Shown piece after piece: positions 17,945-59,901 of a stretch of 64,000 nt of DNA (positions within the stretch are counted from its first letter, which is position 1; each line of letters opens with the position of its first letter). The stretch lies in NCBI GenBank assembly GCA_043801595.1, contig JAZDLW010000022.1, positions 5,526 through 69,525 of the forward strand, read 5' to 3'. Position numbers and translations under genes: made by a program. The stretch is from Candidatus Aenigmatarchaeota archaeon (GTDB lineage Archaea; Aenigmatarchaeota; Aenigmatarchaeia; JACPZZ01). The notes below the pieces were generated by a model that saw nothing but the letters and a program-made list of their open reading frames with translations, was not told the DNA's origin and did no database searches.

Positions 17945-17946
17945 TC

Positions 17947-18016
17947 CTTTTCTTTTAACACAGAAAACAACTGTTTTCTGTGCGCGGAAATCAAAGATTT
18001 CCGCTGAAAAGAAAAG
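17947..18016 (-). repeat. Multi-hairpin intergenic element, two-hairpin form, inverted orientation (70 nt)
   Basis: Closing stem CTTTTCTTTT/AAAAGAAAAG. On the minus strand reads GCGGAAATC-ttt-GATTTCCGC-g-CACAGAAAAC-agt-TGTTTTCTGTG. Starts 3 nt after the upstream stop. Confidence 0.8.
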
Positions 18017-20053: not shown

Positions 20054-20061
20054 TTTATATA
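20054..20061 (+). promoter_or_regulatory. TATA box candidate (CTTTATATA context) directly after the stop of 18048-20051
   Basis: Same string as at 36065-36073. If active, the transcript would carry element 20107-20178 as a leader of the NTase operon. Confidence 0.35.
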
Positions 20062-20106
20062 GCTATTTCTCTTAGAGAACGCAGAAGCCATTATAATGTT
20101 TGACAA

Positions 20107-20178
20107 TAAACTTCTTAAAACAACGGAAACCGTGGGTTTCCGTGCACAGGAAACGTGACGTTTCCTGTGAGAAGTTTA
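20107..20178 (+). repeat. Multi-hairpin intergenic element, two-hairpin form (72 nt, the cleanest copy)
   Basis: Closing stem TAAACTTCT/AGAAGTTTA (9 bp). ACGGAAACC-gtg-GGTTTCCGT (9 bp). CACAGGAAACG-tga-CGTTTCCTGTG (11 bp). All stems are perfect. Confidence 0.9.
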
Positions 20179-28736: not shown

Positions 28737-28758
28737 TAAGCCTTTTCCAAAAGGCTTA
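28737..28758. repeat. Perfect 10-bp palindrome TAAGCCTTTT-cc-AAAAGGCTTA followed by the AGCGAAAAGAGAATGG motif
   Basis: Starts 16 nt after the dCMP deaminase stop. Same stem-plus-tail arrangement as 37773-37807. Resembles the closing stem of the hairpin elements without internal hairpins. Confidence 0.6.
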
Positions 28759-31807: not shown

Positions 31808-31821
31808 CGCGCATTCCGACA

Positions 31822-31842
31822 ACGCATACCTCGGGTATGCGT
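31822..31842. repeat. Single 9-bp hairpin ACGCATACC-tcg-GGTATGCGT preceded by GACAACG
   Basis: Lies between convergent rnz and trm56. The GACAACG lead-in matches the leader of the hairpin-element family. Possibly a degenerate member or a terminator. Confidence 0.4.
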
Positions 31843-31852
31843 TTAGCTGCTC

Positions 31853-32371
31853 TCATATGAATTTTTTTCCGCGCTCGGACGGTTCTATTTTCCTGCGGGC
31901 GTTTTTGAAATCCTTTTCCAATTCGCTTCCATTGAAAATATGGTCGAGTGTAACAGCGATTCCGCTCACTTCGGAGTGCGGCTGGTTCGTTACTGCGACA
32001 TTGTAATCGGCCATATAATACACAGCCATCGGGACTTTCTCACCGCCAGCAACAAGGAGGATTTTATCCTCTTTCCTGATTTCCTTTTCAACGTCCTGCA
32101 AGCGCAAGCCGTACATTGTCAGGTGTACGACTTTGTAACCCATCGAGGAATATCTTTTTATAACGTCATTCCACCTTTTCGCGAATTCTATCTTGAAGCT
32201 TCCGCCCCACTCGGACGAAATTTTTTCAATATTTTTCTTCAATTTCTGGTCCTCGTCGCCCACTATGATAATCTCGTCAGCTCCGAAGGCGCGCGACGCG
32301 AGAGCGCAGTGCGTAGTTATTCGTTGGTCGCGGAATATGCGATGGCCGATGCGCAATACGGAGACTTTCAT
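31853..32371 (-). CDS. trm56: tRNA (cytidine56-2'-O)-methyltransferase (SPOUT)
   Basis: MKVSVLRIGHRIFRDQRITTHCALASRAFGADEIII matches the aTrm56 N-terminus. The 273-aa track ORF was trimmed to Met102 because its extension runs over repeats and the tRNA gene. Confidence 0.8.
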   Translation of the reverse strand: MKVSVLRIGHRIFRDQRITTHCALASRAFGADEIIIVGDEDQKLKKNIEKISSEWGGSFKIEFAKRWNDVIKRYSSMGYKVVHLTMYGLRLQDVEKEIRKEDKILLVAGGEKVPMAVYYMADYNVAVTNQPHSEVSGIAVTLDHIFNGSELEKDFKNARRKIEPSERGKKFI

Positions 32372-32388
32372 ACCAAATCCTTTTCTTT

Positions 32389-32454
32389 CAAACTTTAAGA
32401 CAGCGGTTTGCTGTGCAAACCGCGCATAGGAAACTTGGTTTCCTATGAAGTTTG
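32389..32454 (+). repeat. Multi-hairpin intergenic element, two-hairpin unit
   Basis: Closing stem CAAACTT/AAGTTTG. Hairpins GCGGTTTGC-tgt-GCAAACCGC and CATAGGAAAC-ttg-GTTTCCTATG. Confidence 0.8.
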
Positions 32455-32470
32455 AACAAACGAGAAAAGT

Positions 32471-32537
32471 CTTTGGACAACGAAAATCATAGATTTTCGT
32501 GCACAGGAAATCAACAGATTTTCTGTGTTCCCAAAAG
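32471..32537 (+). repeat. Multi-hairpin intergenic element, two-hairpin unit
   Basis: GACA-ACGAAAATC-ata-GATTTTCGT-g-CACAGGAAATC-aaca-GATTTTCTGTG. Imperfect closing stem CTTTGG/CCAAAAG. Abuts the 3' end of tRNA-Gln. Confidence 0.8.
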
Positions 32538-32546
32538 AAAATGAAA

Positions 32547-32708
32547 TAGCCCCGGGCGGATTCGAAATCGGCAGTGCGAAACTTTCGCTGCGCACTTCCG
32601 CCGTTTACGGGTATCGTCTGACTGAAGCATGCGTATACTAAATAGCGCATGCTTCTAGCTACTACGCCACCCAAAGCCCGCCGTGCTTGGCCGCTGCACT
32701 ACGGGGCT
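32547..32708 (-). tRNA. tRNA-Gln(UUG) with two introns (58 nt after position 37, 31 nt between positions 53 and 54)
   Basis: Hand-folded from the reverse complement. Acceptor AGCCCCG/CGGGGCT, D arm GTGC-AGCGGCCAA-GCAC, anticodon stem GCGGG/CCCGT. The anticodon loop CTTTGG is interrupted by an intron containing the 10-bp hairpin GAAGCATGCG/CGCATGCTTC. T stem GGCGG/CCGCC with loop TTCGAAT is split by the second intron (AGTGCG/CGCACT hairpin). Mature length 73 nt, no encoded CCA. Confidence 0.8.
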
Positions 32709-32718
32709 ATTTTTACCT

Positions 32719-32748
32719 AAACAGGTGCTATTTTGCATGCACCTGTTT
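32719..32748. promoter_or_regulatory. 10-bp perfect inverted repeat AAACAGGTGC-n10-GCACCTGTTT over the expected tRNA-Gln promoter
   Basis: Located 11-40 nt upstream of the tRNA 5' end on the minus strand. The AT-rich loop (AAAATA on the minus strand) sits where a TATA box is expected. Confidence 0.45.
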
Positions 32749-32854
32749 CTAGTTGCCACGTTGATTAATTGAGACTGCGCGTCTTAAATAACGTATCCGC
32801 GCGCTCCGGATGAATATAAAAGTTTAACCCTTTTATTACATATCAGGAGATTTT

Positions 32855-34348: not shown

Positions 34349-36013
34349 ATGAGGATTTTACAACTGCACGCAGACAGCGTTGAGTACGAACCTATTAAAA
34401 AGGAGATAAAGCAGGCCGAAGAAGCTGAGCAGAAAAAATACTCTTTGGTCGAGGTTCTTGTTCTTTTAACAGCAATCGAGAAGGGCGATACCAAAGAAAC
34501 CGCGGCTTGGGCGATCGAAGATGCGGCGAAGTTCATGGCAAAAATGAAGATAACGAGGATGTTAATTTACCCGTACGCGCATTTGAGTTCAAATTTATCA
34601 TCGCCGTTCGATGCCATGGACATTGTTCTGGAGATGGAGAAGGTTGCAAAACAGAATGGGATTGACGCAAACCATGCGCCTTTTGGATGGAATAAAAAAT
34701 TTTCGATATCTGTAAAAGGCCATCCGATGGCAGAGATGTCGCGGACTTACGTCGGAAAGCCGAAAAAAGAGGAGACGATTAAAATTGAAAAACCGAAGGC
34801 CGAGCAGACTATAGAGAAATTACCGGACAGCGACCACAGGATTATCGGGCAGAAACTCGATCTGTTCAGTTTCCAACCAGAAGCGCCTGGGATGGCTTTT
34901 TTTCATCCAGCGGGAATGGTAATCAGGAACGAGCTGGTTAAGTTAACGCGCGAGAAGCTCGCAAAGGCGGGCTATGTCGAGATAACAACGCCGATAATGA
35001 TGAAGAAAAGCATATGGGAACAAAGCGGACACTGGGACCATTACAAGGACAGCATGTTTTTCACAAAGACCGACGATGCGGAATTCGCGATAAAACCTAT
35101 GAACTGTCCTGGAGCAATACTGTTCTTCAAAAACTCGAAGAAGAGTTATCGCAATCTTCCACTGCGCGTTGCGGAATTCGGCATGATACATCGCAACGAA
35201 TTAAGCGGCGTTGTAGGCGGATTGTTCCGCGTTCGCGAATTCACGCAGGACGACGCGCACCTGTTCGTGCGGGTCGACCAGCTTGAGAATGAACTCGCTG
35301 ATGTAGTCGACTTGGTCTCAGATTTTTACAAACAGTTCGGATTTGCTTTCCATGTAGAACTGTCGACCCGGCCGGAAAACTCTATCGGTTCTGATGAATT
35401 GTGGAACAAAGCGGAAAGCGCGCTGGAAAATGTTCTAAAGAAAAAGAATCTTAAATTCAAAACAAACAAGGGCGACGGCGCATTCTACGGGCCGAAGATA
35501 GATTTCCATGTGAAAGATTCGCTTGGCAGAACCTGGCAGTGCGGGACAGTGCAGGTTGATTTTTTCATGCCGCAAAGGTTTGCAATGTCTTATGTAACTG
35601 CGGACGGCAAAGAGGCTGTTCCGATAATGATACACCGTGCAATATACGGAAGCATAGAGCGTTTCATGGGAATTCTTGTCGAACATTACAACGGTGCGTT
35701 TCCTTTGTGGTTATCGCCAACCCAAATTAAAGTACTTCCGATAAGCGACAAGAATTTTGATTACGCAAAGGTGGTTGAAAAAACGCTTTTGTCGTCCGGG
35801 TTCAGGGTTGAAGGCGATTATGAGAATCATACGCTTGACTACAAGATCAGAAACGCCCAGATGGAGAAAGTGTTTTACACAATTGTGATAGGCGCGAAAG
35901 AGGAAGATAAAAAAACGATTGCAGTTCGCGATCGCGCCGGAAAAACAGAATACAATATAAAAATCAACGATTTTATTGAGAAGCTTGCTGTTGCTATCAA
36001 AGACCGTTTGTAA
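34349..36013 (+). CDS. thrS: Threonyl-tRNA synthetase with archaeal DTD-like N-terminal editing domain
   Basis: Class II motifs FHPAGM, HRNELSG..FRVREFTQDDAHLF, GPKIDF, MIHRAIYGSIERF. C-terminal anticodon-binding domain. Confidence 0.9.
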   Translation: MRILQLHADSVEYEPIKKEIKQAEEAEQKKYSLVEVLVLLTAIEKGDTKETAAWAIEDAAKFMAKMKITRMLIYPYAHLSSNLSSPFDAMDIVLEMEKVAKQNGIDANHAPFGWNKKFSISVKGHPMAEMSRTYVGKPKKEETIKIEKPKAEQTIEKLPDSDHRIIGQKLDLFSFQPEAPGMAFFHPAGMVIRNELVKLTREKLAKAGYVEITTPIMMKKSIWEQSGHWDHYKDSMFFTKTDDAEFAIKPMNCPGAILFFKNSKKSYRNLPLRVAEFGMIHRNELSGVVGGLFRVREFTQDDAHLFVRVDQLENELADVVDLVSDFYKQFGFAFHVELSTRPENSIGSDELWNKAESALENVLKKKNLKFKTNKGDGAFYGPKIDFHVKDSLGRTWQCGTVQVDFFMPQRFAMSYVTADGKEAVPIMIHRAIYGSIERFMGILVEHYNGAFPLWLSPTQIKVLPISDKNFDYAKVVEKTLLSSGFRVEGDYENHTLDYKIRNAQMEKVFYTIVIGAKEEDKKTIAVRDRAGKTEYNIKINDFIEKLAVAIKDRL

Positions 36014-36065
36014 AGGTATAGAATGGCTCGGATCGCCAAAAAAACCGCGTTTCGCGGTGATAAAC

Positions 36066-36073
36066 TTTATATA
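36066..36073 (+). promoter_or_regulatory. TATA box candidate (CTTTATATA) at the head of the thrS-ftsZ spacer
   Basis: The same CTTTATATA string occurs at 20053-20061. If used, transcription would start near 36097 and include all hairpin modules upstream of ftsZ. Confidence 0.4.
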
Positions 36074-36180
36074 ACACTTTCACCAATTATTATCAATTAG
36101 GGAGTAGAACTCCTCGTGTAAAAGGCGTTCGGTAACGCCGATTCTTGGTTTGCACTATGACGTGGCAGGGTTACCTACCG

Positions 36181-36242
36181 CGTTTCACAGGTTGCGGGGC
36201 AACCTGTGCAAGGAAACAAATGTTTCCTTTGTAGGCGAAACG
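36181..36242 (+). repeat. Multi-hairpin intergenic element, two-hairpin unit
   Basis: Closing stem CGTTTC/GAAACG. Hairpins CACAGGTTGC-ggg-GCAACCTGTG and CAAGGAAAC-aaat-GTTTCCTT(T)G. Confidence 0.75.
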
Positions 36243-36265
36243 AGTTTTGGCGGTCTGAAGCTTCG

Positions 36266-36308
36266 CAGGTTGCAGAGCAACCGGCGCAGGGAAACACGGT
36301 TTCCCTTG
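36266..36308 (+). repeat. Multi-hairpin intergenic element, two-hairpin unit without an obvious closing stem
   Basis: CAGGTTGC-aga-GCAACCGG and CAGGGAAAC-acg-GTTTCCCTTG. Confidence 0.65.
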
Positions 36309-36321
36309 TGTTGCACATTTT

Positions 36322-36348
36322 GACTAGTCTAACAAGTTTAGACTAGTC
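36322..36348. repeat. Perfect 11-bp hairpin GACTAGTCTAA-caagt-TTAGACTAGTC
   Basis: Contains the self-complementary octamer GACTAGTC twice. Lies between hairpin-element modules upstream of ftsZ. Confidence 0.7.
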
Positions 36349-36352
36349 TGTC

Positions 36353-36399
36353 TGAACTTTTCAAACAACGGAAACGATCGCGTTTCCTCTGGAAGTTCA
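36353..36399 (+). repeat. Multi-hairpin element, single-hairpin unit
   Basis: Closing stem TGAACTT/AAGTTCA around CAACGGAAACG-atcg-CGTTTCC. Ends 10 nt before the GGAGGGG Shine-Dalgarno-like sequence of ftsZ. Confidence 0.7.
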
Positions 36400-36422
36400 C
36401 TCAAATAATGGAGGGGAATTGT

Positions 36423-37547
36423 ATGTCGATATTGGAGTCGGTATTAAACAAGGGTGCTGCAACAGCAGGTCACGGAAGCGATTCGGGCGTGACAATGAAG
36501 AATTTCGATTATGAAAAGATAACCGAACAAGAGTTTGGTTTCAGCATGAAAAGAGCGAAAATAGTTGTAATTGGATGCGGTGGTGGAGGTACTAACTCTA
36601 TCAATCGTCTGGCAGAAATGGGCGTTGAAGGAGCCAATACTGTTGCAATAAACACGGATGCAAAGCATTTAGCGGTCATAAAGGCTGACAAAAAGATCCT
36701 TATTGGAAAGGAAATTACCAGAGGTTTGGGAGCAGGCGGTTACCCGGAAATAGGAAAGAAAGCAGCCGAAGAGAGTAGAACACAGCTGAAAGAATCGCTG
36801 GCAGGAGCCGATCTGGTATTCCTCACTGCCGGAATGGGCGGTGGAACCGGAACAGGTTCAGCACCGGTCGTTTCCGAGATTGCGAAAGAATTGGGCGCGA
36901 TCGTTATCGGAGTGGTAACAATGCCATTCAAGATCGAAGGCGCAAGAATTATTAAGGCCGAGAACGGTCTCGGAAAATTACGAGAAGCGTGCGACACTGT
37001 AATAGTGATCGAGAACGATAAACTTCTCGAGTTTGCAGGTGACCTTCCGATCCAGCAAGCGTTTGCCGTAGCGGACGAATTGATCGCCGGGATGGTAAAG
37101 GGAATAACAGAGGCTATAACGCTGCCGTCATTGGTTAACCTAGACTACGCTGACGTGAAGGCGATAATGCATTCGGGCGGAGTCGCGGCAATAGGCCTTG
37201 GATTCTCAAACAGTTCCGACAGGGCGCGCGATGCTGTAACAAAAGCATTGCAGAATCCGTTGTTAGAAGTTGATTATCAGGGCGCTAGCGGAGCGTTAAT
37301 CCACATAACAGGCGGCCCAGACCTTAAACTGTCCGAAGTCAACCAAATCGGTGGCATAGTGTCTTCGCATCTAGATTCCTCGGCGCAGGTAATCTGGGGC
37401 GCAAGAGTGCAACCGGACTTCCACGGAAAGGTGCAGGTAATAACAATAATAACAGGAGTTACCAGCCCGTACATACTGGGCCAGGTTACCAGGGAATCCA
37501 CCCCTACCTTGGGAATCAGCGAGCTCGGTATTGACAGGATAGCATAA
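36423..37547 (+). CDS. ftsZ: Cell division GTPase FtsZ
   Basis: GCGGGGTNSINRL, tubulin signature AGMGGGTGTGSAPVV, T7 loop NLDYADV. Start chosen at ATG 36423 because GGAGGGG (36410-36416) lies 6 nt upstream. The track start 36408 is in frame. Confidence 0.95.
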   Translation: MSILESVLNKGAATAGHGSDSGVTMKNFDYEKITEQEFGFSMKRAKIVVIGCGGGGTNSINRLAEMGVEGANTVAINTDAKHLAVIKADKKILIGKEITRGLGAGGYPEIGKKAAEESRTQLKESLAGADLVFLTAGMGGGTGTGSAPVVSEIAKELGAIVIGVVTMPFKIEGARIIKAENGLGKLREACDTVIVIENDKLLEFAGDLPIQQAFAVADELIAGMVKGITEAITLPSLVNLDYADVKAIMHSGGVAAIGLGFSNSSDRARDAVTKALQNPLLEVDYQGASGALIHITGGPDLKLSEVNQIGGIVSSHLDSSAQVIWGARVQPDFHGKVQVITIITGVTSPYILGQVTRESTPTLGISELGIDRIA

Positions 37548-37573
37548 ACTAGAATTGCGGTGCGATGAAGCGA

Positions 37574-37618
37574 CACAGGAAACGATAGTTTCCTGTGCAC
37601 GGTTTGCTTTTGCAAACC
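37574..37618 (-). repeat. Multi-hairpin element, two-hairpin unit in inverted orientation
   Basis: CACAGGAAAC-gata-GTTTCCTGTG then GGTTTGC-tttt-GCAAACC. This is the reverse order of unit 32389-32454. Confidence 0.75.
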
Positions 37619-37644
37619 TTTGAGCTGAGCACTTTACTAATTTT

Positions 37645-37766
37645 TAAACTTTTTAAAACAACGGAAACCTATGGTTTCAACGAAAACTCAAGAAGTTTTC
37701 GTGCATAGGGAAACTCGGTTTCCCCATGCCGTGCATAGGAAATTGTCGAATTTCCTATGAAGTTTA
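37645..37766 (+). repeat. Multi-hairpin intergenic element, long four-hairpin form (122 nt)
   Basis: Closing stem TAAACTT/AAGTTTA. Hairpins GAAACC/GGTTTC, ACGAAAACT/AGTTTTCGT, CATAGGGAAAC/GTTTCCCCATG (1 mismatch), CATAGGAAATT/AATTTCCTATG. Confidence 0.85.
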
Positions 37767-37772
37767 ATCAAA

Positions 37773-37793
37773 CAAGCTTTTCAAAAAAGCTTG
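37773..37793. repeat. 9-bp palindrome CAAGCTTTT-caa-AAAAGCTTG followed by AGCAAAAGAGAATGG
   Basis: The stem sequence equals the closing stem of the long element at 11130-11249 (AAGCTTTT/AAAAGCTT) but encloses no hairpins. Confidence 0.6.
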
Positions 37794-37838
37794 AGCAAAA
37801 GAGAATGGTTTTAAACCGTTCGGTACTAACATTATTTT

Positions 37839-37973
37839 ATGGAGATAACGACAAAGTCGGTGAGGAAATTTTTCAAGTCCAAGAAGAACCTGTTATACAT
37901 GTTTTTCTGGTCGCTGATGTTTTTGGCCGGTTTTGCGGTTGCGTTGTTGTTAATTGCGCGGGGGCGGGTTTGA
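37839..37973 (+). CDS. Small single-TM protein (44 aa, below the ORF-track cutoff)
   Basis: Hand-translated MEITTKSVRKFFKSKKNLLYMFFWSLMFLAGFAVALLLIARGRV. Its TGA is immediately followed by the ATG of the DUF357 gene. Confidence 0.35.
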   Translation: MEITTKSVRKFFKSKKNLLYMFFWSLMFLAGFAVALLLIARGRV

Positions 37974-45567: not shown

Positions 45568-45687
45568 GACCTTTTTTAACAACGGAAAGCTTCTGCTTTC
45601 AACGGAAGCCACAGGTTTCCGTGCACAGGAAAATCGTGATTTTCCCGTGCCGTGCATAGGAAATTTCCGAATTTCCTATGAAAGGTC
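45568..45687 (+). repeat. Multi-hairpin intergenic element, long four-hairpin form (120 nt)
   Basis: Closing stem GACCTTT/AAAGGTC. Hairpins GAAAGC/GCTTTC, ACGGAAGCC/GGTTTCCGT, CACAGGAAAATC/GATTTTCCCGTG, CATAGGAAATT/AATTTCCTATG. Starts 9 nt after the upstream stop. Confidence 0.85.
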
Positions 45688-46225: not shown

Positions 46226-46295
46226 ACTTCTTAGGACAACGGAAAGCCGAAGCTTTCCGTGCAAAGGAAACGCATCGTTTCCTTTGAGAAGTTTA
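46223..46295 (+). repeat. Multi-hairpin intergenic element, two-hairpin form (73 nt)
   Basis: Closing stem TAAACTTCT/AGAAGTTTA, whose TAA is the stop codon of the upstream gene. Hairpins ACGGAAAGC-cgaa-GCTTTCCGT and CAAAGGAAACG-cat-CGTTTCCTTTG. Confidence 0.85.
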
Positions 46296-48588: not shown

Positions 48589-50862
48589 ATGGCTCTACGT
48601 TTCGAGTACAATCCGCAGGATAATTCCATACGGCTGAACACGCTCGGTACGCTTTACGGCTCAAGCCTCGAGGACTTTGACGCCATAATGGCGGCAGCTA
48701 TTGATAAAATAATCGAGGTAAAGAAAGTTTCGCGGATCGTGCTTGCGGAAACGCGTGAATACGAGTATGACTGGGAACAAACAAAGCTTCTTGTCGAAAT
48801 TGCCGAAGCACTGGATGAGATAGTAAAAGGAAGGAGATTGCTGACCATTTCTGCGCTGTCGCCGCCAAACTGCGACAAGCACACGCAAGAGCGAAGCCAC
48901 AACGTGCAGCGCATTGTAATAGATTTGATGCGGCGCGACCCGATCGGAGCGTATGCGGAGGTATTGAGGGAGATCAGACAGGCGAAAATAGACGCGAAGA
49001 AGAACCCATATCACATCCAGTGCTACGCGTATTATGTGAACAATTCGCTGCTTCCAATCCAGCGTGCGATGGAATCCACGACGCTGATACAACTCGTAAA
49101 GGATAATATCGCAGGCTATCATATCGGCGACAGGAGCCTTTACAGGGATATATTTCATCCAACAGTACGGCCGAATTTCATGCTAACAAGGTACATGTCC
49201 GCCACGCCCGCAAACGGCCAGGCGGTTGACAGGTACAAAATCGGCGACATAGATGTTGAGATATTCCGCGTTCCAACAAAATCGGAATTGGTCTATCACG
49301 TTATTCCGCCTGAATTTCAGTTAACAGAGGATAAGTACATGTTGCTGGATGCGGCCAGAAGATATATGGCAGCACACAGGCCCATTGAAACGGAGTTTTC
49401 CGATCCCGAGCGGGCGCGCGAGATATTCGCAAACATAGGGCGCGACATGATACGCGATTTGTCAACGAACATGGGAATATTTTTGAGCCCGGGCGAGACC
49501 GAGAATATAACCAAAATCCTGACGCGTTACACAGCAGGCTACGGAGTTTTGGAAATTTTACTGGCCGACGAAAAGATACAGGACATATATATCAATTCGC
49601 CTATCGGACAAAATCCCATATACATCACGCATTCCGATTACAACGAGTGCGCAACCAATCTTATTCCCACAAAGGATGACGCTGAATCGTGGGCAACGAG
49701 ATTCAGAATAGCGTCTGGACGGCCGTTAGACGAGGCGAACCCGGTCCTTGACACGGATATAATAGTTCCTGGCGGGCGCGCGAGAGTTGCTGCGATAACA
49801 AAGACTTTGTCGCCTGAAGGGCTGGCGTTCGCGTTCCGAAGACACAGGGATAAACCTTGGACGCTACCGTTGTTCATAAAAAGCGGGATGATAAATCCGC
49901 TGTTCGCGGGCGTGATGAGTTTTTTAGTCGATGGTTCAGCGTCTATGCTGATCGCAGGCGGTCGAGGATCCGGAAAGACGTCGCTGTTAAACGCCCTGAT
50001 GCTTGAGATCTCGCCGAACAAGCGAATACTTACTGTCGAGGATACGATCGAGCTTGCGGTCGATTACATGAGAAAGCTCGGGTACAACATCGAACGATTG
50101 AAGTCGCGTTCGGTGATTACGCACATCGAAACTGAGATGGCTGCGGATGAGGCGTTGCGAACTGCGCTGCGTCTCGGCGATTCCTCGTTAATAGTGGGCG
50201 AAGTGCGTTCGATCGAGGCGAAAGCGCTGTACGAGGCAATGCGAATAGGCGCTTTATCGAACATTGTCGCAGGCACAATACACGGCGAATCGCCGTACGG
50301 CGTTTACGACCGAGTTGTGAACGATCTCGGCGTTCCGCCGACAAGTTTCAAAGCGACGGATATAATCGTTATTGCGAAAATGCTCCATTCCGCCGACGGT
50401 TTGCACAGGTTCCGGCGCGTAACGGAATTGACAGAAGTGCGCAAGCACTGGAAAAACGACCCGTACGAAGAAAAGGGATTTGTAAACCTCATGGAATATT
50501 CGGCTGCTAACGACGCACTGAAGGCCACTGATGTTCTGTCTACGGGCGAGTCGGAAATAATAAACCGGATAGCTTCGTCAACGCGCGAGTGGGAAGGAAA
50601 ATGGGAGGATGTATGGGAAAACATACAGCTTCGCGCGAACATCAAAAAAGCAATGGTCGACTACTCCACCAAACTCAATCTTCCGGAAATAATCGAGGCG
50701 CCGTGGGTGATACAATCCAACGAATGTTTCCATATAATCAGTTCGAAAATCAAGGAAGATACGGGTTACATGGATCCGAAGGAAATATTCTCCAGGTGGG
50801 ATAAATGGTTTGGCACAAAAATAAAGGAGTATATTCCGAAATTGGCGACAAAGGCAAGATGA
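48589..50862 (+). CDS. Type IV pilus/archaellum-type secretion ATPase (GspE/VirB11/FlaI family) with an N-terminal extension of about 300 aa
   Basis: Walker A GGRGSGKTSLLNAL, Walker B region SLIVGEVRSIEA, His-box-like AGTIHGESP. 757 aa. Confidence 0.9.
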   Translation: MALRFEYNPQDNSIRLNTLGTLYGSSLEDFDAIMAAAIDKIIEVKKVSRIVLAETREYEYDWEQTKLLVEIAEALDEIVKGRRLLTISALSPPNCDKHTQERSHNVQRIVIDLMRRDPIGAYAEVLREIRQAKIDAKKNPYHIQCYAYYVNNSLLPIQRAMESTTLIQLVKDNIAGYHIGDRSLYRDIFHPTVRPNFMLTRYMSATPANGQAVDRYKIGDIDVEIFRVPTKSELVYHVIPPEFQLTEDKYMLLDAARRYMAAHRPIETEFSDPERAREIFANIGRDMIRDLSTNMGIFLSPGETENITKILTRYTAGYGVLEILLADEKIQDIYINSPIGQNPIYITHSDYNECATNLIPTKDDAESWATRFRIASGRPLDEANPVLDTDIIVPGGRARVAAITKTLSPEGLAFAFRRHRDKPWTLPLFIKSGMINPLFAGVMSFLVDGSASMLIAGGRGSGKTSLLNALMLEISPNKRILTVEDTIELAVDYMRKLGYNIERLKSRSVITHIETEMAADEALRTALRLGDSSLIVGEVRSIEAKALYEAMRIGALSNIVAGTIHGESPYGVYDRVVNDLGVPPTSFKATDIIVIAKMLHSADGLHRFRRVTELTEVRKHWKNDPYEEKGFVNLMEYSAANDALKATDVLSTGESEIINRIASSTREWEGKWEDVWENIQLRANIKKAMVDYSTKLNLPEIIEAPWVIQSNECFHIISSKIKEDTGYMDPKEIFSRWDKWFGTKIKEYIPKLATKAR

Positions 50863-52931
50863 GCGTAATGGGCGACAACTCTTTGGATAAGGACGAGCTG
50901 GCACGGATTGCGAAAGAATATGCGCCCAGAATTTTCGAGGATTATGAAAAGAGGCCCGAGGAATTCGTTTCACGTGACTATAAAGTATTCAAGAGCGAGG
51001 AAGCCAGCTCCAAAAAAAATCTTACGCCTTACGAATTACTTTGCAGCGTTGCTGAAAAAATAATCAAAGTGCAGCCTTCGAAAGGCTCTTCCGAAGACCT
51101 GACAAAATCAATAGAATTTTCCGGAATGCGGTGCACGCCGGCTGGCGTGTTGTCCGCAGCGTTCATATCAACTATACTCTTCATTTTTTTATCAGCAACC
51201 ATCACGCTTATCGGATTAGTGCCGATACCACTCGGACTGACCATGGTAATTTTCTCAATGTTCGCAGGTTTTTACATCGTGCATTACCCCAAAAAGCGCG
51301 CCAAAGACCTGCGTGTACGCGCATCCGAGGAGATCGTTCTGTCAATAGTCTACATGGTAATATCCATGCGGATTGTCCCGAACCTTGAGAATGCGATAAA
51401 GTTCGTTGCGACCAATCTGGCAGGACCGTTGGCAATGGACTTCCGCAAGCTTCTATGGGACATATACATGAGAAAAGAGGAGAACACGGACAAGGCGCTC
51501 GGCAAATACATCGATATGAGATGGAAGAACGAGAACGAGGAATTTTCCTCCGCATTAAACCTTATACGCAATTCCGTTGACCAGCCTGAACAAAAGCGTC
51601 TCGCCATGCTCGACGAGTCTGTTGACGTAATATTGAAAGGGACAAAGGAAAGGATGAATCACTATGCACACAACTTGCAAATGCCATTGCTGATAATACA
51701 CGCAATGGGAATAATGCTTCCGGTGATAGGGCTTGTTTTGTTCCCGGTTCTCGTGATGTTTTTATCAAATCTCATCCAGCCGTATATGCTATTCCTGGGG
51801 TACGACGTTTTCCTTTTCCTCGGGCTGTGGTGGTATACGTCGAACGTTTTGTCGACAAAGCCGCCGACACTCTCAAAGCCTGATGTTTCTAAGCATCCGG
51901 ATACGCCGAAGGCAGGATATTTCCGGCTAAGAATTTTCGGAAAAAAATTGAACGTAAGGACGGCTATACCTCCGTCAATACTTTTTGTAACACTGTTTGC
52001 CATAGGCGTTAACGGAATGACAAACAATGCGGCAACGTCGTTCATCAAGGTGATATATTCCGTTGTCATCATCGCGGCGTTTTCGCTTTCAATATCGTTT
52101 TACGCGTTTTTGGAATCTTTCCAGCGTACATACGTGCGGAAAAAAATAATGAGCGTCGAATCCGAGTTTGCGGAAGCTTTATTCCACCTTGGAAACCAAT
52201 TGTCTTCCGGAATTCCGATAGAGAATGCTATTGATAAAAACCAGGAGAAGATACGCGACCTGAGTATATCAGATTTCTTCGAGCGCATTGTGCAAAACAT
52301 CAAACGCATGGGCATGACGTTTGAGCAGGCGATTTTTGACAAGAACAACGGCGCTGTCTGGTATTACCCGTCGAGTCTGATCATATCGGTGATGAAAGTG
52401 ATTGTCGAGGCTGTGCGAAAGGGCGTTTACAATGCATCGCAGTCAATGCTTTCGATATCAAGATACCTCAAGGACGTGCATTCGATAGAAGAGGAGCTGC
52501 GTTCGGTATTGGGAGAAAGCACAACGAGCATGAAATTTTTAGGAGCGGTTCTTGCGCCGTTGGTAGCAGGCGTGACAGTAACGCTGGCATTGGTAATGCT
52601 CGACATAATCAAGGCGCTCGGAGAGAAGATTGCGATATTAACATCGCAGGGTGGGGCGACAAGCCTTCCGTTATTCTTAACAATCGGAATGGACAAAGGT
52701 GCGGTTACTGCGGAAATATTCCAGCTTGTTGTCGGGATATACATGCTTGAGGTGGCAGGATTGTTATCGTATTTCGTAAGCAGGATCGAAACAGGGGAAG
52801 ACAAGATCAACTTTTACAGTACGCTCGCGCTTAACATGTTCATATCGTTTGCCGTTTATTCCATAACAATCCTGATAGTTTATTCGACGTTCGGAGCGCA
52901 GATACAGAGCGCGATAATTGGAGGGGTTTGA
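50859..52931 (+). CDS. FlaJ/TadC/PilC-like polytopic membrane platform protein
   Basis: Start set at ATG 50859 (ATGA overlap with the ATPase stop). Alternating cytoplasmic helical domains and TM clusters. Position next to the ATPase supports the call. Confidence 0.65.
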   Translation: MSVMGDNSLDKDELARIAKEYAPRIFEDYEKRPEEFVSRDYKVFKSEEASSKKNLTPYELLCSVAEKIIKVQPSKGSSEDLTKSIEFSGMRCTPAGVLSAAFISTILFIFLSATITLIGLVPIPLGLTMVIFSMFAGFYIVHYPKKRAKDLRVRASEEIVLSIVYMVISMRIVPNLENAIKFVATNLAGPLAMDFRKLLWDIYMRKEENTDKALGKYIDMRWKNENEEFSSALNLIRNSVDQPEQKRLAMLDESVDVILKGTKERMNHYAHNLQMPLLIIHAMGIMLPVIGLVLFPVLVMFLSNLIQPYMLFLGYDVFLFLGLWWYTSNVLSTKPPTLSKPDVSKHPDTPKAGYFRLRIFGKKLNVRTAIPPSILFVTLFAIGVNGMTNNAATSFIKVIYSVVIIAAFSLSISFYAFLESFQRTYVRKKIMSVESEFAEALFHLGNQLSSGIPIENAIDKNQEKIRDLSISDFFERIVQNIKRMGMTFEQAIFDKNNGAVWYYPSSLIISVMKVIVEAVRKGVYNASQSMLSISRYLKDVHSIEEELRSVLGESTTSMKFLGAVLAPLVAGVTVTLALVMLDIIKALGEKIAILTSQGGATSLPLFLTIGMDKGAVTAEIFQLVVGIYMLEVAGLLSYFVSRIETGEDKINFYSTLALNMFISFAVYSITILIVYSTFGAQIQSAIIGGV

Positions 52932-53359
52932 TGCCGTCGGACAATGTTCGCTTCATGTTCTGGATCGCGATAGCTTTGATGTTCATGCTTGTGTTTTTCG
53001 GAATAGCAAACATACTGTTGCCCAGATTAATAATTTACAGTCAGCTGCCTGATACCGAGAGATCGCTTTATTCGGACAGCGGCGACGAGGCTGCGCTGCG
53101 CATTGTGAACGGCGTATGCAATCTGTGGAATGCCAAAGTCAGCTTCGATTCAGGCTTCGAGAGCGTTGTCGACTACAGAATAACATCCGGTTCAGCGGGA
53201 GAGACGCAGATCGGCGTTAAGTTCAGTTCAGTATGCCCGGAAATAGGCGACCACTGGAGATATGCGGGAGTTACGATGAGTGCGGAGAACACGTACGAGG
53301 TCAGAATAACACTGGACAGCGGTACGTCGAAGATAATCATTAATGTGAAAAAGAAGTAG
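52928..53359 (+). CDS. N-terminally anchored pilus-operon protein (143 aa)
   Basis: ATGA overlap with the upstream stop. Hydrophobic N-terminus FMFWIAIALMFMLVFFGIANILL. Confidence 0.55.
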   Translation: MMPSDNVRFMFWIAIALMFMLVFFGIANILLPRLIIYSQLPDTERSLYSDSGDEAALRIVNGVCNLWNAKVSFDSGFESVVDYRITSGSAGETQIGVKFSSVCPEIGDHWRYAGVTMSAENTYEVRITLDSGTSKIIINVKKK

Positions 53360-53366
53360 TGAATAT

Positions 53367-53591
53367 ATGATAACAGCGGAAAGCGCAAAGATAATGTTCA
53401 TTGCGATAATCGCAATAGTCGTGCTGACTGTAGTATTGGTTGTCGCGGTCGCACTGCAGGCTGCAACGCCGAGCGCAAACGTGTCAACGTGCGACGTGAT
53501 TGAGGGAAGCGGGGTTGTTGGAAAAGGTATCTGCTATCCGCTAAAGGCAGCGACATGGGTTTATTCAAAAACAATAGGCGTGATAAAATGA
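53367..53591 (+). CDS. Small N-terminally anchored pilus-operon protein (74 aa)
   Basis: IMFIAIIAIVVLTVVLVVAVAL helix followed by a short Cys-containing tail. Confidence 0.5.
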   Translation: MITAESAKIMFIAIIAIVVLTVVLVVAVALQAATPSANVSTCDVIEGSGVVGKGICYPLKAATWVYSKTIGVIK

Positions 53592-53788
53592 ATAAAAAAG
53601 GCATGACAACGGCAATGCTCGTAATACTGGGAGCGGTCGTAGTATCATTGATGGTTCTTGGCGTATTCCTGCTATTCTTTAACGAGGAATCGCAAACTGG
53701 CGGTTTTGCGGTTGTGTTTGCAAAAGGCATATGCGGTTTTCTAGCAAACGTAATAGGCGGTTTTGGCGCTGCGATATGCAACCTGTGA
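53588..53788 (+). CDS. Small pilin-like protein with class III signal-peptide-like N-terminus
   Basis: Start at ATG 53588 (ATGA overlap). MNKKG/MTTAMLVILGAVVVSLMVLGVFLL. Confidence 0.55.
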   Translation: MNKKGMTTAMLVILGAVVVSLMVLGVFLLFFNEESQTGGFAVVFAKGICGFLANVIGGFGAAICNL

Positions 53789-53828
53789 TGGTTTATAATC
53801 GTAAAAAATAATACTAAGAAGGATGTAT

Positions 53829-55040
53829 ATGCGAAAAGGAATGTCGGCTGGTGCGCTGGCGCTGATGGGTGGGATAGCGTTGCTGCTTCTCGTGTTGATT
53901 ATCAATGCTGCGCTGGATCCGACGTCCGGTTTTCGCGACTTCCTGAAAAAAGTGCCGTGGTTAAATAAAATCGTCGCGCCAGGCTCTTCTGACGGGGATA
54001 CGACGCCTGCGCCAATTCCCACAGACTCTTTCAAGGATTATCCGAGTTGGAGCTCGCTTTCAATATCTCCGACAGCACCGGCAATAAAATGGTCGTCTCC
54101 AACAGATTCCGCAGATGCATGCAAAGTTAAAATCGAATCATTGTTCGATCCTGTTAAAAATCCCAATTTCAACAGCTTCCGTGATATTTGTTTGTACGCG
54201 ACTTCAGATTTTCTATCGGAACCGTTCGATCTTGGCACAAACTGCAAAGTGGAGGCGAGCACACTCGTAAGCTACGTATCGTCTGTTTGCCGTTCGCAAG
54301 TCGGTGTGTTCGGCCTTGACCACAGAACATGGTTGCTTCCTACCAAAAATTGCGGGCAGACCCACAGGGACAAATTCAATGACATAAGATTCAACTGTGG
54401 GCTGGACAACGTGTGTTCGGGAGTTGTGCGATTATACTACAACAAGGATGACAAAGGCGTAGGGATCTGCGACGGAAATTCCGATATTCCGGCAATAAAA
54501 GACGCTCCTACAGCCAAAACGACGATCATAAAATGGCTCGATGACAGGATAAAGGATTCGGAGCAAAGCGGTGCGGGATCCGAAATGTGCGATTCTTTCA
54601 GCGATTGCACAATGGTGATAAATATTCCTGAGCCAGGGATACCGATAAACGAGCTTACGACAGCGATAATAGAGAATGTTAGGATTGACATGGGCGTTGA
54701 CAACGCATTTGCTGACGGTGCGAAATATCTGGAGTATGGGAGCGGAAAACCTTCCTGCGGTTCTTGCTGGCTACCATGGAATTTACCATGCTGCTTATCA
54801 GGAGGTTATGTCAGAGACGGCGTGGGACTAGATTTTTCTTTTTACGATCCTGCGCCTTACCAGTCAACAGGGCTGGCGGTCCCATGCGCAGTTCCAAAAT
54901 CGGAAAATCTCGGCTATAACTGCGGTTCGAACAATGTGTGCACGGGTGATATCAGGGTAACATACGGCTGCTCGTTTGCAGGTTCCTGCGGTAAAGATAA
55001 TAAACAGAGATTCATCGGCGTATGCGAAAAACCACCATAG
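53829..55040 (+). CDS. Cys-rich secreted pilin-like protein (about 403 aa)
   Basis: MRKG/MSAGALALMGGIALLLLVLII, then about 24 Cys. Internal repeat FNCGLDNVCSGVVRLYY / YNCGSNNVCTGDIRVTY. ATG 53823 is an alternative start. Confidence 0.65.
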   Translation: MRKGMSAGALALMGGIALLLLVLIINAALDPTSGFRDFLKKVPWLNKIVAPGSSDGDTTPAPIPTDSFKDYPSWSSLSISPTAPAIKWSSPTDSADACKVKIESLFDPVKNPNFNSFRDICLYATSDFLSEPFDLGTNCKVEASTLVSYVSSVCRSQVGVFGLDHRTWLLPTKNCGQTHRDKFNDIRFNCGLDNVCSGVVRLYYNKDDKGVGICDGNSDIPAIKDAPTAKTTIIKWLDDRIKDSEQSGAGSEMCDSFSDCTMVINIPEPGIPINELTTAIIENVRIDMGVDNAFADGAKYLEYGSGKPSCGSCWLPWNLPCCLSGGYVRDGVGLDFSFYDPAPYQSTGLAVPCAVPKSENLGYNCGSNNVCTGDIRVTYGCSFAGSCGKDNKQRFIGVCEKPP

Positions 55041-55071
55041 GATTGTAGTCATGGACCACTAAAAGATATTT

Positions 55072-55392
55072 ATGAAAGCATTAACAGAGGCGACATTGGC
55101 TGTGCTGATAGGTTTTATCATTGCGCTGGTTTTCGCGTTCCTGATGCTAGGCTGGGTCGAAAACAGCGGCGACAACATAGAACGCGAACGGAGCAAACTC
55201 GCGTCAACAGCAGGATGTCTGACAAAAGAAAACGCGTGCGGATTCGATGATAACAAAGCGTGCGTGTACACGCTTGACGGGCAAAATGCATGCGGCTGCC
55301 GCGCATGGTTAGGGATCGATAAAAACGGCGATTGCGCCGAAGGAAAGAAATGCAGTTCGGAAAGAGGGACGAATTATGGTTTCTGTGTTTAA
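55072..55392 (+). CDS. Cys-rich N-terminally anchored pilus-operon protein (106 aa)
   Basis: ATLAVLIGFIIALVFAFLML helix. 9 Cys in the C-terminal 60 aa. Confidence 0.55.
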   Translation: MKALTEATLAVLIGFIIALVFAFLMLGWVENSGDNIERERSKLASTAGCLTKENACGFDDNKACVYTLDGQNACGCRAWLGIDKNGDCAEGKKCSSERGTNYGFCV

Positions 55393-55567
55393 GGGTGAAA
55401 GCGATCAGGCGCTGATGATGGTTCTTGTAATTGTTGGTTTCGTTATCCTGCTCGGAATAGCAATAGCGCTGGTTGTTGTAATCGGAAGACCGAGCGCGAT
55501 GAACGCTGTTCCGCTGATCGGAAACTCGCTTTGCGATCTTTTGAAAGGATTAAGGGTGAAATGCTGA
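55376..55567 (+). CDS. Small pilin-like protein (63 aa)
   Basis: MVSVFKG/ESDQALMMVLVIVGFVILLGIAIALVVV. Overlaps the upstream gene by 17 nt. Confidence 0.45.
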   Translation: MVSVFKGESDQALMMVLVIVGFVILLGIAIALVVVIGRPSAMNAVPLIGNSLCDLLKGLRVKC

Positions 55568-55900
55568 ATGCCGGAACAGGGAATAGATCTTATGATGGTC
55601 GTCGTAGGTACGATCGTTTTGCTGGCGGTAATAATAGGATTGGTTTTTTTAGGCGTTATCGGGCCGATTGACAGCACGAAAAAAGGAAGGAATATGGAGT
55701 TCGCTTGCACGCAATACCAAGGCGAGATAGGGTGTGCGAGAAGCGAATGCACGACCGCGTACGATTCTACTGCGTGCAGAATTTTGCTTGCAAATACAAA
55801 ATACGGCGCAAATTCAATAAGCGTCTGGGAAACCTGCAATTCGATAGGAATAAACGATCCCAAAAACTGCCATATAAGATGCTGCGGAAAGACGGGATGA
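55568..55900 (+). CDS. Cys-rich pilin-like protein (110 aa)
   Basis: MPEQG/IDLMMVVVGTIVLLAVIIGLVFLG. 8 Cys, ending CHIRCCGKTG. Confidence 0.55.
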   Translation: MPEQGIDLMMVVVGTIVLLAVIIGLVFLGVIGPIDSTKKGRNMEFACTQYQGEIGCARSECTTAYDSTACRILLANTKYGANSISVWETCNSIGINDPKNCHIRCCGKTG

Positions 55901-55907
55901 TTTTATT

Positions 55908-56252
55908 ATGCGCAAACAAAATAAGTTCATGAAAAAAGGAATGCTGGCAATAGATATGATTATCGTGCTTGCGATAGGCGTAATAATCCTCGCGGTTGTT
56001 GTCGGACTTGTAATATTCGGCGGGCAGCAGCCGGGAAGCGATATTGCGAAGCAGGCGTTCGTGCGATCGTGCTGCCAGTTGAACATGCCGACCACATGTA
56101 CGGCTGACTCTTCAACAATTAACTGTATAATTCCCAAAAGTCTTGAATCGTCGTTCGGTTGTACATCTTCACCGTGCTCTAGGAAGCTGGATTTTGTGGC
56201 AAGTGCGATAGGTATAACATCCAATGTAAAAGCGTTCTGCGGTTGCGGCTGA
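55908..56252 (+). CDS. Cys-rich pilin-like protein, paralog of 61857-62222
   Basis: MKKG/MLAIDMIIVLAIGVIILAVVVGLVIFG (alternative start 55929). DIAKQAFVRSCCQLN parallels QQARANFNNACQILV. Ends FCGCG. Confidence 0.6.
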   Translation: MRKQNKFMKKGMLAIDMIIVLAIGVIILAVVVGLVIFGGQQPGSDIAKQAFVRSCCQLNMPTTCTADSSTINCIIPKSLESSFGCTSSPCSRKLDFVASAIGITSNVKAFCGCG

Positions 56253-56287
56253 AAAACATATTATTAAACAAAATACAATTCTAGTTG

Positions 56288-59457: not shown

Positions 59458-59459
59458 AC

Positions 59460-59900: not shown

Positions 59901-59901
59901 T

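Follow-up and report, generated by a model that had tools for sequence, protein, structure and literature searches.

The cell division gene ftsZ of a Candidatus Aenigmatarchaeota archaeon lies between two unusually long spacers packed with hairpins, and we propose that two unrelated layers are superimposed there, namely a conserved regulatory backbone and insertions of a family of selfish hairpin arrays; we regard this as the probable explanation, though well short of a certain one. The DNA analysed, referred to as the window, is a stretch of 64,000 nucleotides (nt) from this DPANN archaeon (assembly GCA_043801595.1, contig JAZDLW010000022.1, positions 5,526-69,525, forward strand), and window positions are used throughout, position 1 being the first letter of the stretch. 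Its gene content is archaeal and includes a threonyl-tRNA synthetase (ThrRS, gene thrS) with the archaea-specific editing domain, FtsZ, aTrm56, TFB, and a CCA-adding enzyme. DPANN archaea are uncultivated organisms with tiny genomes, and to our knowledge very little is known about gene regulation or non-coding DNA in them.

As set by its orthologues, ftsZ starts at ATG 36423 (MSILESV...) and not at 36408. Counted to this codon, the spacer between thrS and ftsZ is 409 nt, and the downstream spacer, up to an open reading frame (ORF) of 44 amino acids that starts at 37839, is 291 nt, against a median intergenic gap of 38.5 nt in the window, where only 4 of 72 gaps exceed 200 nt. A first-pass annotation of this DNA had singled out both spacers for their length, and every feature that it named in them was recovered with small differences in boundaries only: a TATA-like box (TTTATATA, 36066-36073), two small hairpins (GGGAG/CTCC at 36100-36113 and GGCGTT/AACGCC at 36124-36139), three hairpin units and a perfect 11-bp palindrome upstream of ftsZ, a Shine-Dalgarno (SD) sequence (GGAGGGG, 36410-36416), and, downstream, an inverted unit, a four-hairpin unit and an empty palindrome (37773-37793; all others in Table 1). 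RNA folding gives z-scores of -7.5 for the upstream and -8.6 for the downstream spacer, with 0 of 100 and 0 of 200 shuffled sequences, respectively, as stable.

The nearest FtsZ loci in GTDB genomes belong to groundwater metagenome-assembled genomes (MAGs) of Candidatus Aenigmatarchaeota. The window was compared with four sister genomes, namely L001, L002 and L003 (GTDB MAGs, with FtsZ amino-acid identities of 92-94%) and L084 (a metagenome contig of the same clade), FtsZ identities over the sister genomes together being 92-95%, and with two further relatives, L118 and L119, whose FtsZ identities are 84% and 85%. The L084 leader was recovered by a metagenome scan with an invariant 20-mer, the other 3 matches of which were due to chance. 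Synteny with L001 extends over 26.8-46.9 kb of the window, and identities of ordinary proteins range there from 26% to 84%, with the majority at 57-84%. At its four-fold degenerate sites ftsZ is 38-57% identical over all pairs and 38-44% identical between the window and its sisters, and synonymous sites of the gene are close to saturation between these genomes.

A putative structured leader upstream of ftsZ

In the clade of the window the DNA upstream of ftsZ is best read as a structured 5' leader. A backbone is conserved in all four sister genomes and consists of a TFB recognition element (BRE) with a TATA box, an initiator, the helices P1, P2a/P2 with a U-tract, P3 and P6, and the SD sequence. 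Between the window and its sisters the promoter with the ~100 nt behind it is 77-87% identical, and among all five genomes the 5' domain of the leader is 77-98% identical; over 36065-36104, a segment that spans the TATA box, the initiator and the 5' arm of P1, 37-40 of 40 positions agree in the five genomes. A covariance model of the 5' domain of the leader, which is single-copy in the window, matched only the five orthologous leaders in 0.8 Mb, with neither a second copy nor a distant homologue in that sequence.

Only one TATA-like box occurs in the 409-nt spacer. It stands 357 nt ahead of the ftsZ start codon, and from 36074 to that codon there is no second one; among the 49 window genes, 25 have such a box inside 400 nt, the nearest one at a median of 40 nt upstream. 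In five genomes an exact TTTATATA follows GATAAAC or AAAAAAC, as in an archaeal BRE/TATA promoter, where a purine-rich BRE precedes a box of the TTTAWATA type, and the putative promoter is retained in L118 along with an initiator of the form CAATTAG..CATTAG, while the contig of L119 begins at P1 and leaves the promoter off the contig. Transcription probably starts within 36074-36099, where a CAATTA direct repeat is possibly the operator of a transcription factor, and from the BRE/TATA ~355 nt upstream of ftsZ it would yield a leader of ~325 nt here and ~240 nt in the sisters. At the other end of the leader an invariant GGAGGGGAATTGT precedes ATG 36423. The long leader suggested in the first-pass annotation is plausible on these grounds, the sole TATA-like box being distal and both the promoter and the 5' domain being conserved, and relatives with the same gene order have long spacers as well (~320 nt), and not the short ones that the annotation had named as a refutation. 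A conserved, structured ftsZ leader of ~240-325 nt would stand out against the median TATA distance of 40 nt and would offer a handle on division control. The nucleotidyltransferase gene at 20224, among the few others in the window with a distant nearest TATA-like box, also has an exact TTTATATA far upstream (-170, 20055-20062), with a hairpin array (E3) in between.

The RNAalifold consensus recovers P1, P2a enclosing P2 and a U-rich tract, and P3, with several G.U pairs on the sense strand, and the presence of such pairs in the leader helices points to structure in the RNA. The 5' arm of P1 mimics an SD sequence and its 3' arm is anti-SD-like; its loop is T-rich in L118 and L119. P2a contains a G.U pair in 5 of 5 sequences together with one change from A-U to G.U, and in P3 the pair 78-95 is UG, GC or UA and the pair 80-93 is AU or GC across the genomes. 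The tract after P2, T7 in L001 and T6 in L003 and interrupted in the window, L002 and L084, is a candidate site of early termination or attenuation. Further down, the second UUGCAC is an alternative partner for GUGUAAA in a predicted helix, and P6 has a stem whose sequence differs in each genome yet always folds, in L001 by means of three sense-strand G.U pairs; P6 was judged from single-sequence folds in place of formal pair counts, since a bulge shifts the register between species. GTG-TAA at 36116-36121 (GTG-TGA in L003 and L084), 11-12 nt past the SD-like GGGAG of P1, constitutes a minimal start-stop ORF, and the A-to-G change, which keeps the stop codon but also the G.U pair of P2a, is ambiguous in meaning.

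Control inside such a leader would most likely take the form of premature termination at the U-tract, of switching between the alternative GUGUAAA helices, or of both. The leader resembles attenuators and riboswitch-like leaders in its length and conservation, in predicted helices that would exclude one another, in the U-tract behind a hairpin, and in a segment of the anti-SD type; it differs in having no known aptamer and no Rfam match. Our confidence in the proposed mechanisms of the backbone, which are attenuation, alternative pairing of GUGUAAA, the SD mimic and anti-SD arms of P1, and a kink-turn (K-turn) bound by L7Ae on the 3' side of the gene, is moderate to low.

Long non-coding DNA upstream of ftsZ is a trait of the lineage. 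In a survey of more distant Aenigmatarchaeota, ORF tiling left a usable upstream gap at 20 ftsZ loci, with spurious overlapping ORFs masking three others, and at 20 of these 20 the gap was longer than 200 nt, compared with 14% of 980 gaps overall. The L118 leader, ~145 nt long and shared by L119, keeps the BRE/TATA, the initiator and P1 and differs in the remainder, and thrS is no longer its neighbour. More distant relatives (L005, L006, L007, L010, L011, L019, L020 and L022) have a different layout in common, as at L005:9500-9925, in which a distal TATA box comes first, followed by ACGGGTT or GGGCTT in 3-5 direct repeats, by a hairpin and TATTTCTAA, by a proximal BRE/TATA inside a CGAAAACC..GGTTTTCG inverted repeat (GAAAAC/GTTTTC), and then by AAAATATATTTT and the SD sequence.

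The distal promoter might instead serve an independent small RNA, which would end at the U-tract (~55 nt) or at the T/A palindrome ahead of the SD sequence (~250 nt), with ftsZ transcribed separately or by read-through. The BRE/TATA is strong, conservation is concentrated in the first ~100 nt, and in distant relatives the distal TATA box, repeats and hairpin are indeed followed by a second, proximal TATA box, but in the window there is no second TATA-like box from 36074 to the ATG. The proposed 3' ends are similarly divided: the hairpin after P2 is followed by a run of T6-T7 in L001 and L003 but by an interrupted tract in the window, L002 and L084, and T/A palindromes stand just ahead of the SD sequence in L002 and L084 but are missing from L001 and L003. 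There is no Rfam match either, and we give this RNA a small chance. The first-pass annotation had raised the possibility of independent non-coding RNAs and a comparison with Rfam, from which they receive no support: Rfam 15 has 0 matches in the whole window at the gathering score, and at a permissive threshold only 3 in 35950-37900 (E >= 3), to unrelated microRNA and small RNA models and driven by single hairpins. ARAGORN found no tRNA or transfer-messenger RNA in the ftsZ spacers and made no call on the window as it stands. Signal recognition particle RNA, RNase P RNA, and H/ACA or C/D guide RNAs were rejected on motifs, there being no conserved boxes and no guides, and so was a small conserved ORF (for example CdrS-like) in the upstream spacer, where the lone ORF, 36150-36323, is not conserved.

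A dispersed family of hairpin arrays

The hairpin units beside ftsZ are not special to it and belong to a family of modules found in at least 8 other spacers of the window. Clusters of the hairpin GRAAAN-loop-NTTTYC occur at 11.1, 18.0, 20.1, 32.4, 36.2-36.4, 37.6-37.8, 45.6 and 46.2 kb, the family has at least 11 loci in 64 kb, and GGAAA-N4-12-TTTCC has 20 occurrences where 1.5 are expected. Loops are 3-6 nt long, and the stem variants are GGAAAC, GGAAAG, GAAAAC and GGAAAT. Type A arrays consist of 1-4 hairpins with CGTGCA linkers and (A)ACAAC in front, nested between two complementary arms that vary by copy (GCTTTT/AAAAGC, AACTTCT/AGAAGTT, GACCTTT/AAAGGTC, GAACTT, AAACTT). Type B units combine a GGTTGC hairpin and a GGAAAC hairpin; two lie in the leader, one lies inverted in the loop of the K-turn-like hairpin, and one is at 32.4 kb. 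There are also empty versions, palindromes of T/A runs with the same tail, at 28737-28758, at 37773-37808 and in L001, L002 and L084; the tail GAGCAAAAGAGAATGG of the second of these recurs behind the palindrome at 28737-28758, the E6 array and the empty palindrome of L084. The asymmetric core AACGRAA..TTYCGTGCA has 6 of 6 matches on the + strand (0.01 expected), and 9 of 9 type A arrays are + oriented, including E8 and E9 beside the - strand genes for tRNA-Gln and aTrm56; GC skew follows gene strand throughout, so that replication and transcription bias are not separable.

The distribution of these elements among relatives is that of a mobile or selfish repeat, with dispersed copies that are polymorphic for presence. 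Among 84 loci, arrays occur only in the window genome and L003, and at no fewer than 5 orthologous sites the family copies are absent or empty in relatives. The site of type B copy a (36186-36231) is a gap in all relatives; the E4 site is bare in L001 and L003 and occupied by empty T/A palindromes in L002 and L084; E5 and the unit in the K-turn loop are absent from L001-L003, the spacer to the next ORF being ~100 nt in L001 and L002; the spacer that holds E6 is 180 nt in the window, and L001 has 33 nt without an element in its place and a nested but empty palindrome at the E7 site; and E8 and E9 are absent from the orthologous site of L001 and L003. The type B unit of the leader is placed differently with respect to the conserved GUUGCAC, 5' of it in the window and 3' of it in the relatives. 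Of the hairpins scanned in the window and L003, 28 of 39 are perfectly Watson-Crick paired; the mismatches (G:T 4, A:C 5) give no strand signal when G.U is tested against A.C on the module stems, and near-perfect stems without an excess of G.U point to young palindromes at the DNA level and not to selection at the RNA level.

We envisage that these modular palindromic arrays spread as selfish DNA, with hairpins joined by GTGCA linkers, 1-4 of them per array in the window and as many as ~8 in a sister, and that they would lodge in the loops of pre-existing palindromes, among them terminator-like palindromes of T/A runs and the K-turn hairpin. Insertion at a pre-existing hairpin would account for complementary flanks that differ between copies, and the array insertions for the ~90 nt upstream of ftsZ and the ~190 nt downstream of it by which the window exceeds its sisters. 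Module density is highest around ftsZ, with five units in 700 nt, which may be explained by the loop targets that the flanks of this gene offer. The nesting in host hairpin loops hints at a structure-directed mechanism of insertion, and the insertions near ftsZ are probably neutral or affect ftsZ only incidentally. In L003, two inverted multi-hairpin arrays (88 nt, 93% complementary) surround a 3.6-kb segment (L003:11270-15200) that carries VapBC/AbrB-PIN-like toxin-antitoxin pairs and a DUF357 gene and replaces the small ORF usually found after ftsZ; one possibility is an inversion, another a composite mobile segment.

For the proposal of post-transcriptional control made in the first pass, the consequence is that the long leader from a distant TATA box gains from conservation and from the box being the only one, while the hairpin modules as a control device of ftsZ mostly fall away: the majority of the stems it had counted are copies of a dispersed repeat, lie near unrelated genes, are absent or empty in relatives, and are almost purely Watson-Crick paired. 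A dedicated device comprising the whole leader and trailer with their modules, for example as multiple sites for one RNA-binding protein, seems to us quite improbable. The modules are densest around ftsZ, but the same ones flank genes without a common theme (a helicase, a GTPase, a nucleotidyltransferase and unknowns); one type B unit is indeed present in every sister leader, but copy number and position vary between sisters, and E4 and E5 are absent in L001 and L003; and the leader and trailer do fold very stably, but through near-perfect Watson-Crick stems without a G.U excess. The GAAAAC/GTTTTC inverted repeat around the proximal ftsZ BRE/TATA of distant relatives would also suit such a device. 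As a practical warning, dense hairpins beside an important gene are not in themselves evidence of regulation.

Selection might also act on the arrays at the RNA level, as parts of operon transcripts that stabilise 3' ends, terminate transcription or mark sites of processing, in the manner of repetitive extragenic palindromic (REP) sequences, bacterial interspersed mosaic elements (BIME) or pneumococcal BOX elements. This reading, to which we allow a modest chance, would fit the T-rich left arms, the outer stems that differ by copy yet stay complementary, the one orientation shared by all arrays, and the position of 7 of the 9 type A arrays after + strand genes, several directly past the stop codon; it fits poorly with E8 and E9, which are antisense to neighbouring genes, with the lack of conservation of copies at orthologous sites, with stems lacking the G.U pairs that selection on RNA would favour, and with the inverted copies that flank the 3.6-kb segment in L003.

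Very improbable, in our estimate, is a role of the palindromes as double-stranded DNA binding sites, be it as operators of a dimeric regulator, as sites of a nucleoid protein or as boxes resembling those of origin recognition. A fixed dimer site would tolerate neither loops of 3-6 nt nor covarying stems, copies stand after genes as often as before them, and at least 11 dispersed loci in 64 kb argue against a replication origin, although the GGAAAC/GTTTCC half-sites are partly conserved in sequence, the stems are perfectly Watson-Crick paired, and there is a likeness to the inverted repeat around the proximal ftsZ TATA box of distant relatives. Origin-recognition boxes were rejected specifically, with TTTCC/GGAAA halves 7 nt apart and at least that number of dispersed loci, as was a CRISPR array, the linkers between units being 1-7 nt with no true spacers. 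A scan of viral contigs for the array core gave 33 single chance matches and no arrays.

The 3' side of ftsZ

The second part of the backbone that we favour as underlying the insertions lies just downstream of ftsZ, where the window and L001-L003 share, as a conserved element, GTGCGATGAAGC-loop-GCTGAGCAC with TTTACTTATTTTTT behind it. The pattern GTGCGATGAAGC..G(C/A/G)..GAGCAC is kept in L001-L003 with loops of 4-6 nt, and in the window the loop is expanded by the inserted type B unit. At the level of sequence the hairpin conforms to a K-turn of the Kt-7 or box C/D type, with GUGC-GAU-GA-AGC on the bulged strand and GCU-GA-GCAC on the other, and folding predicts an internal loop with 5/2 asymmetry for 3 of 4 genomes, namely the window, L002 and L003.

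C/D-like K-turns in Sulfolobus mRNAs are targets of L7Ae (PMC5539422, PMC6298567). The ftsZ motif resembles box C/D K-turns in its canonical stem, 3-nt bulge, tandem GA/GA and short non-canonical stem and in lying in the untranslated region of an mRNA; the GAUGA of its bulged strand resembles the C box RUGAUGA, and the opposite strand has CUGA, the D box reading CUGA in two of the genomes and CAGA or CGGA in one each. Unlike the mRNA K-turns bound by L7Ae, it is situated at the 3' end and not in the 5' leader, and its position 3n varies (U, A, G); unlike box C/D RNAs, it has no guide regions and no C'/D' boxes. A box C/D small RNA was rejected, there being one C/D-like pair only and no room for a guide in orthologue loops of 4-6 nt. 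The hairpin is probably bound by L7Ae and together with the T-rich tract behind it would end the ftsZ transcript; a K-turn at ftsZ would extend the Sulfolobus-based idea of L7Ae touching mRNAs.

The T-rich tract is probably the terminator of ftsZ. In the relatives L001 and L002 the tract (TTACTTATTTTTT) lies ~30 nt before the next ORF and so may be both terminator and TATA box, in which case the small gene that follows would have its promoter there in sister genomes. L118 and L119 are without the K-turn and have a hairpin and T-run instead. The next ORF, of 44 amino acids, is followed directly by a DUF357 gene that begins at 37974; the label SecE for the ORF, suggested by gene order, was dropped as unsupported.

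Two further observations concern this side of the gene. In L005-L022 a conserved acidic ORF of ~20-30 amino acids with the motif (I/L)WDP(L/F)E(D/E) lies 30-150 nt downstream of ftsZ and is replaced in the window clade by the 44-amino-acid membrane-type ORF; the acidic protein could be a partner of FtsZ. L119:1285-1335, 3' of ftsZ, contains two hairpin modules of another type, GTGAAAACAC..GTGTTTTCAC and CACAAGACAC..GTGTCTTGTG, that are absent in L118, which suggests a similar turnover of palindromes in the neighbouring clade.

Discussion

Several points weigh against a conserved backbone overlaid by selfish arrays. Only 2-4 compensatory double changes are seen in the leader, a thin covariation that reflects how similar the five leaders are, and past P1 the leader is not alignable with those of L118, L119 or more distant relatives. 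The K-turn is recognised by its sequence geometry and is lacking from the minimum-free-energy fold of L001, and the start site of ftsZ, the continuity of leader and gene, and termination are all deduced from the DNA. With regard to the arrays, each of the four sister leaders contains one type B unit, which therefore may be functional there; the arrays that follow + strand genes (7 of 9, E1 lying between convergent genes) leave room for a role at the transcript level; and no mobilising enzyme was found, a transposase, HUH or integrase Pfam domain being present in 0 of ~66 window ORFs.

A bolder form of the proposal is that the ftsZ mRNA carries an undescribed riboregulator, made up of exclusive helices, a U-tract attenuator, an SD mimic and an L7Ae K-turn, and that the arrays are a new class of mobile palindromes that integrate into hairpin loops. 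We consider it doubtful that both would hold in full, but if true the riboregulator would couple cell division to a cellular signal such as free L7Ae or ribosome assembly.

Among known repeats, the REP/BIME elements of proteobacteria are mobilised by REP-associated tyrosine transposases (RAYT; PMC2817692, PMC3733652), and a REP sequence or REPIN is defined as a palindrome of 20-40 bp with a GTAG (or CGTC) tag at one end (PMC3733652). The window arrays are like them in being multicopy, short, extragenic palindromes in composite arrays, mostly intergenic or near 3' ends, whose presence varies between relatives. They are unlike them in having no GTAG/CGTC tag (stems open with ACGG, CACAGG or CATAGG and close with CCGT, CCTGTG or CCTATG), in being co-oriented in tandem with fixed GTGCA linkers where BIME alternate, in being nested in the loop of a host palindrome, in the archaeal host, and in the absence of a RAYT or IS200/IS605 gene within the 64-kb window.

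The BOX elements of Streptococcus pneumoniae are modular, intergenic, stable stem-loops in which the terminal modules pair and the number of internal modules varies. The arrays share this build, having paired ends, variable inner hairpins, an intergenic location and stable stem-loops, but their outer arms are not conserved in sequence and resemble the target palindrome, there is no sequence relation, and the host is archaeal. Insertion sequences such as IS1397 and ISKpn1 insert in REP loops, and class C group II introns insert at terminator hairpins; these are autonomous and protein-coding. The arrays are like them in apparently inserting into or beside a pre-existing hairpin and unlike them in that only non-coding arrays of 45-120 nt are seen here.

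Prokaryotic MITEs (miniature transposable elements with inverted repeats), including archaeal ones, are small, non-coding, dispersed, structured and variable between strains (reviewed in PMC10969869), and the window arrays have these properties, varying between genomes. They differ from MITEs in that the outer arms are not the same between copies and so do not amount to conserved terminal inverted repeats, no flanking direct duplication of a target site was found, and hairpin number varies. In its behaviour the family is like REP/BIME, BOX and loop-targeting insertion sequences, but with an unusual nested and co-oriented build in a DPANN archaeon. The arrays imply that selfish palindromes of a REP-like kind can expand even in the streamlined genomes of DPANN archaea.

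Feature coordinates and further observations

Table 1. Features of the ftsZ region and hairpin arrays of the window, in order of position
Feature	Position	Strand	Remarks
Type A array E1, four hairpins	11132-11247	+	begins immediately behind the stop codon of a gene for an Lhr-type helicase
Type A array E2, two hairpins	17946-18016	+	outer stem CCTTTTCTTTT/AAAAGAAAAG
Type A array E3, two hairpins	20109-20176	+	between the TATA box (20055-20062) and the gene at 20224
Array E8	32390-32453	+	flanking tRNA-Gln and aTrm56, - strand
Array E9	32471-32537	+	flanking tRNA-Gln and aTrm56, - strand
thrS	34349-36013		ThrRS and archaeal editing domain (Pfam)
BRE-like purine run and TATA box (GATAAAC TTTATATA)	36059-36073	+	invariant in L001, L002, L003, L084
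Initiator region with CAATTA direct repeat (36084-36089, 36094-36099)	36074-36099	+	within near-invariant 40-nt segment
P1 hairpin, AGGGAG-loop-CUCCU	36099-36114	+	kept in 7/7 leaders including L118, L119
P2a helix GUGUAAA/UUUGCAC enclosing P2 (GGCGUU/AACGCC) and U-rich tract (36142-36151)	36116-36155	+	RNAalifold
P3 hairpin with conserved loop (GGUUACCUA)	36159-36185	+	compensatory changes
Type B copy a, CACAGGTTGC..GCAACCTGTG and CAAGGAAAC..GTTTCCTTTG	36186-36231	+	46 nt, 76% identical to copy b
Type B copy b, 5' of conserved GUUGCAC	36264-36308	+	single unit of relatives lies 3' of GUUGCAC
Second UGUUGCAC motif	36309-36316	+	conserved in all five leaders
P6 hairpin, perfect 11-bp palindrome on GACTAGTC	36322-36348	+	folds in orthologues
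Type A array E4, one hairpin; outer stem GAACTT/AAGTTC around AAACAAC and GGAAACG..CGTTTCC	36354-36398	+
SD sequence GGAGGGG, spacer and start codon	36410-36425	+	GGAGGGGAATTGTATG invariant in five genomes
ftsZ coding sequence	36423-37547	+	Pfam Tubulin and FtsZ_C; orthologues
K-turn-like hairpin: canonical (C) stem GGUGC/GCAC, bulge GAU, tandem GA/GA, non-canonical (NC) stem AGC/GCU	37559-37632	+	conserved motif
Type B unit, inverted, in loop of K-turn-like hairpin	37574-37618	-	absent from L001-L003
T-rich tract (TTTACTAATTTTTAAAC)	37633-37649	+	conserved motif; putative roles
Type A array E5, four hairpins; outer stem AAACTT/AAGTTT, linkers CGTGCA	37646-37765	+
Empty T/A palindrome (CAAGCTTTT caa AAAAGCTTG) with family tail GAGCAAAAGAGAATGG	37773-37808	+
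44-amino-acid membrane-type ORF	37839-37973	+	orthologues in L001, L002; 47-amino-acid ORFs in L118, L119
Type A array E6, four hairpins	45568-45687	+
Type A array E7, two hairpins	46226-46292	+

Away from ftsZ, a T2SSE-type ATPase (type IV pilus or archaellum-like) is followed by a block of mostly uncharacterised ORFs (48589-62222), in which, besides the ATPase, 0 of 15 ORFs have a Pfam match at E <= 1e-5.

The surroundings of E8 and E9 contain an unannotated gene for tRNA-Gln(UUG) at 32547-32708 on the - strand, interrupted by an intron at 37/38 and a second one in the T-arm. The gene escapes ARAGORN even when its intron options are used; with both introns removed by hand, the program makes a clean call of a 75-nt tRNA-Gln; the orthologues in L001 and L003 differ in intron content. 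The neighbouring aTrm56 ORF (31853-32674, - strand) is over-extended, and the Trm56 domain and orthologues place its start at ATG 32371 (MKVSVLRIGH), so that 32372-32854 is non-coding and holds E8, E9 and the tRNA. Another conserved type of perfect hairpin, RCGCATAYC-loop-GRTATGCGY, is found in the window between convergent genes (31821-31843), at L001:6209-6231 and 6333-6353, and at L084:5011-5033; the L001 copies lie in the orthologous spacer between aTrm56 and tRNA-Gln, one of them between exon segments of the tRNA.

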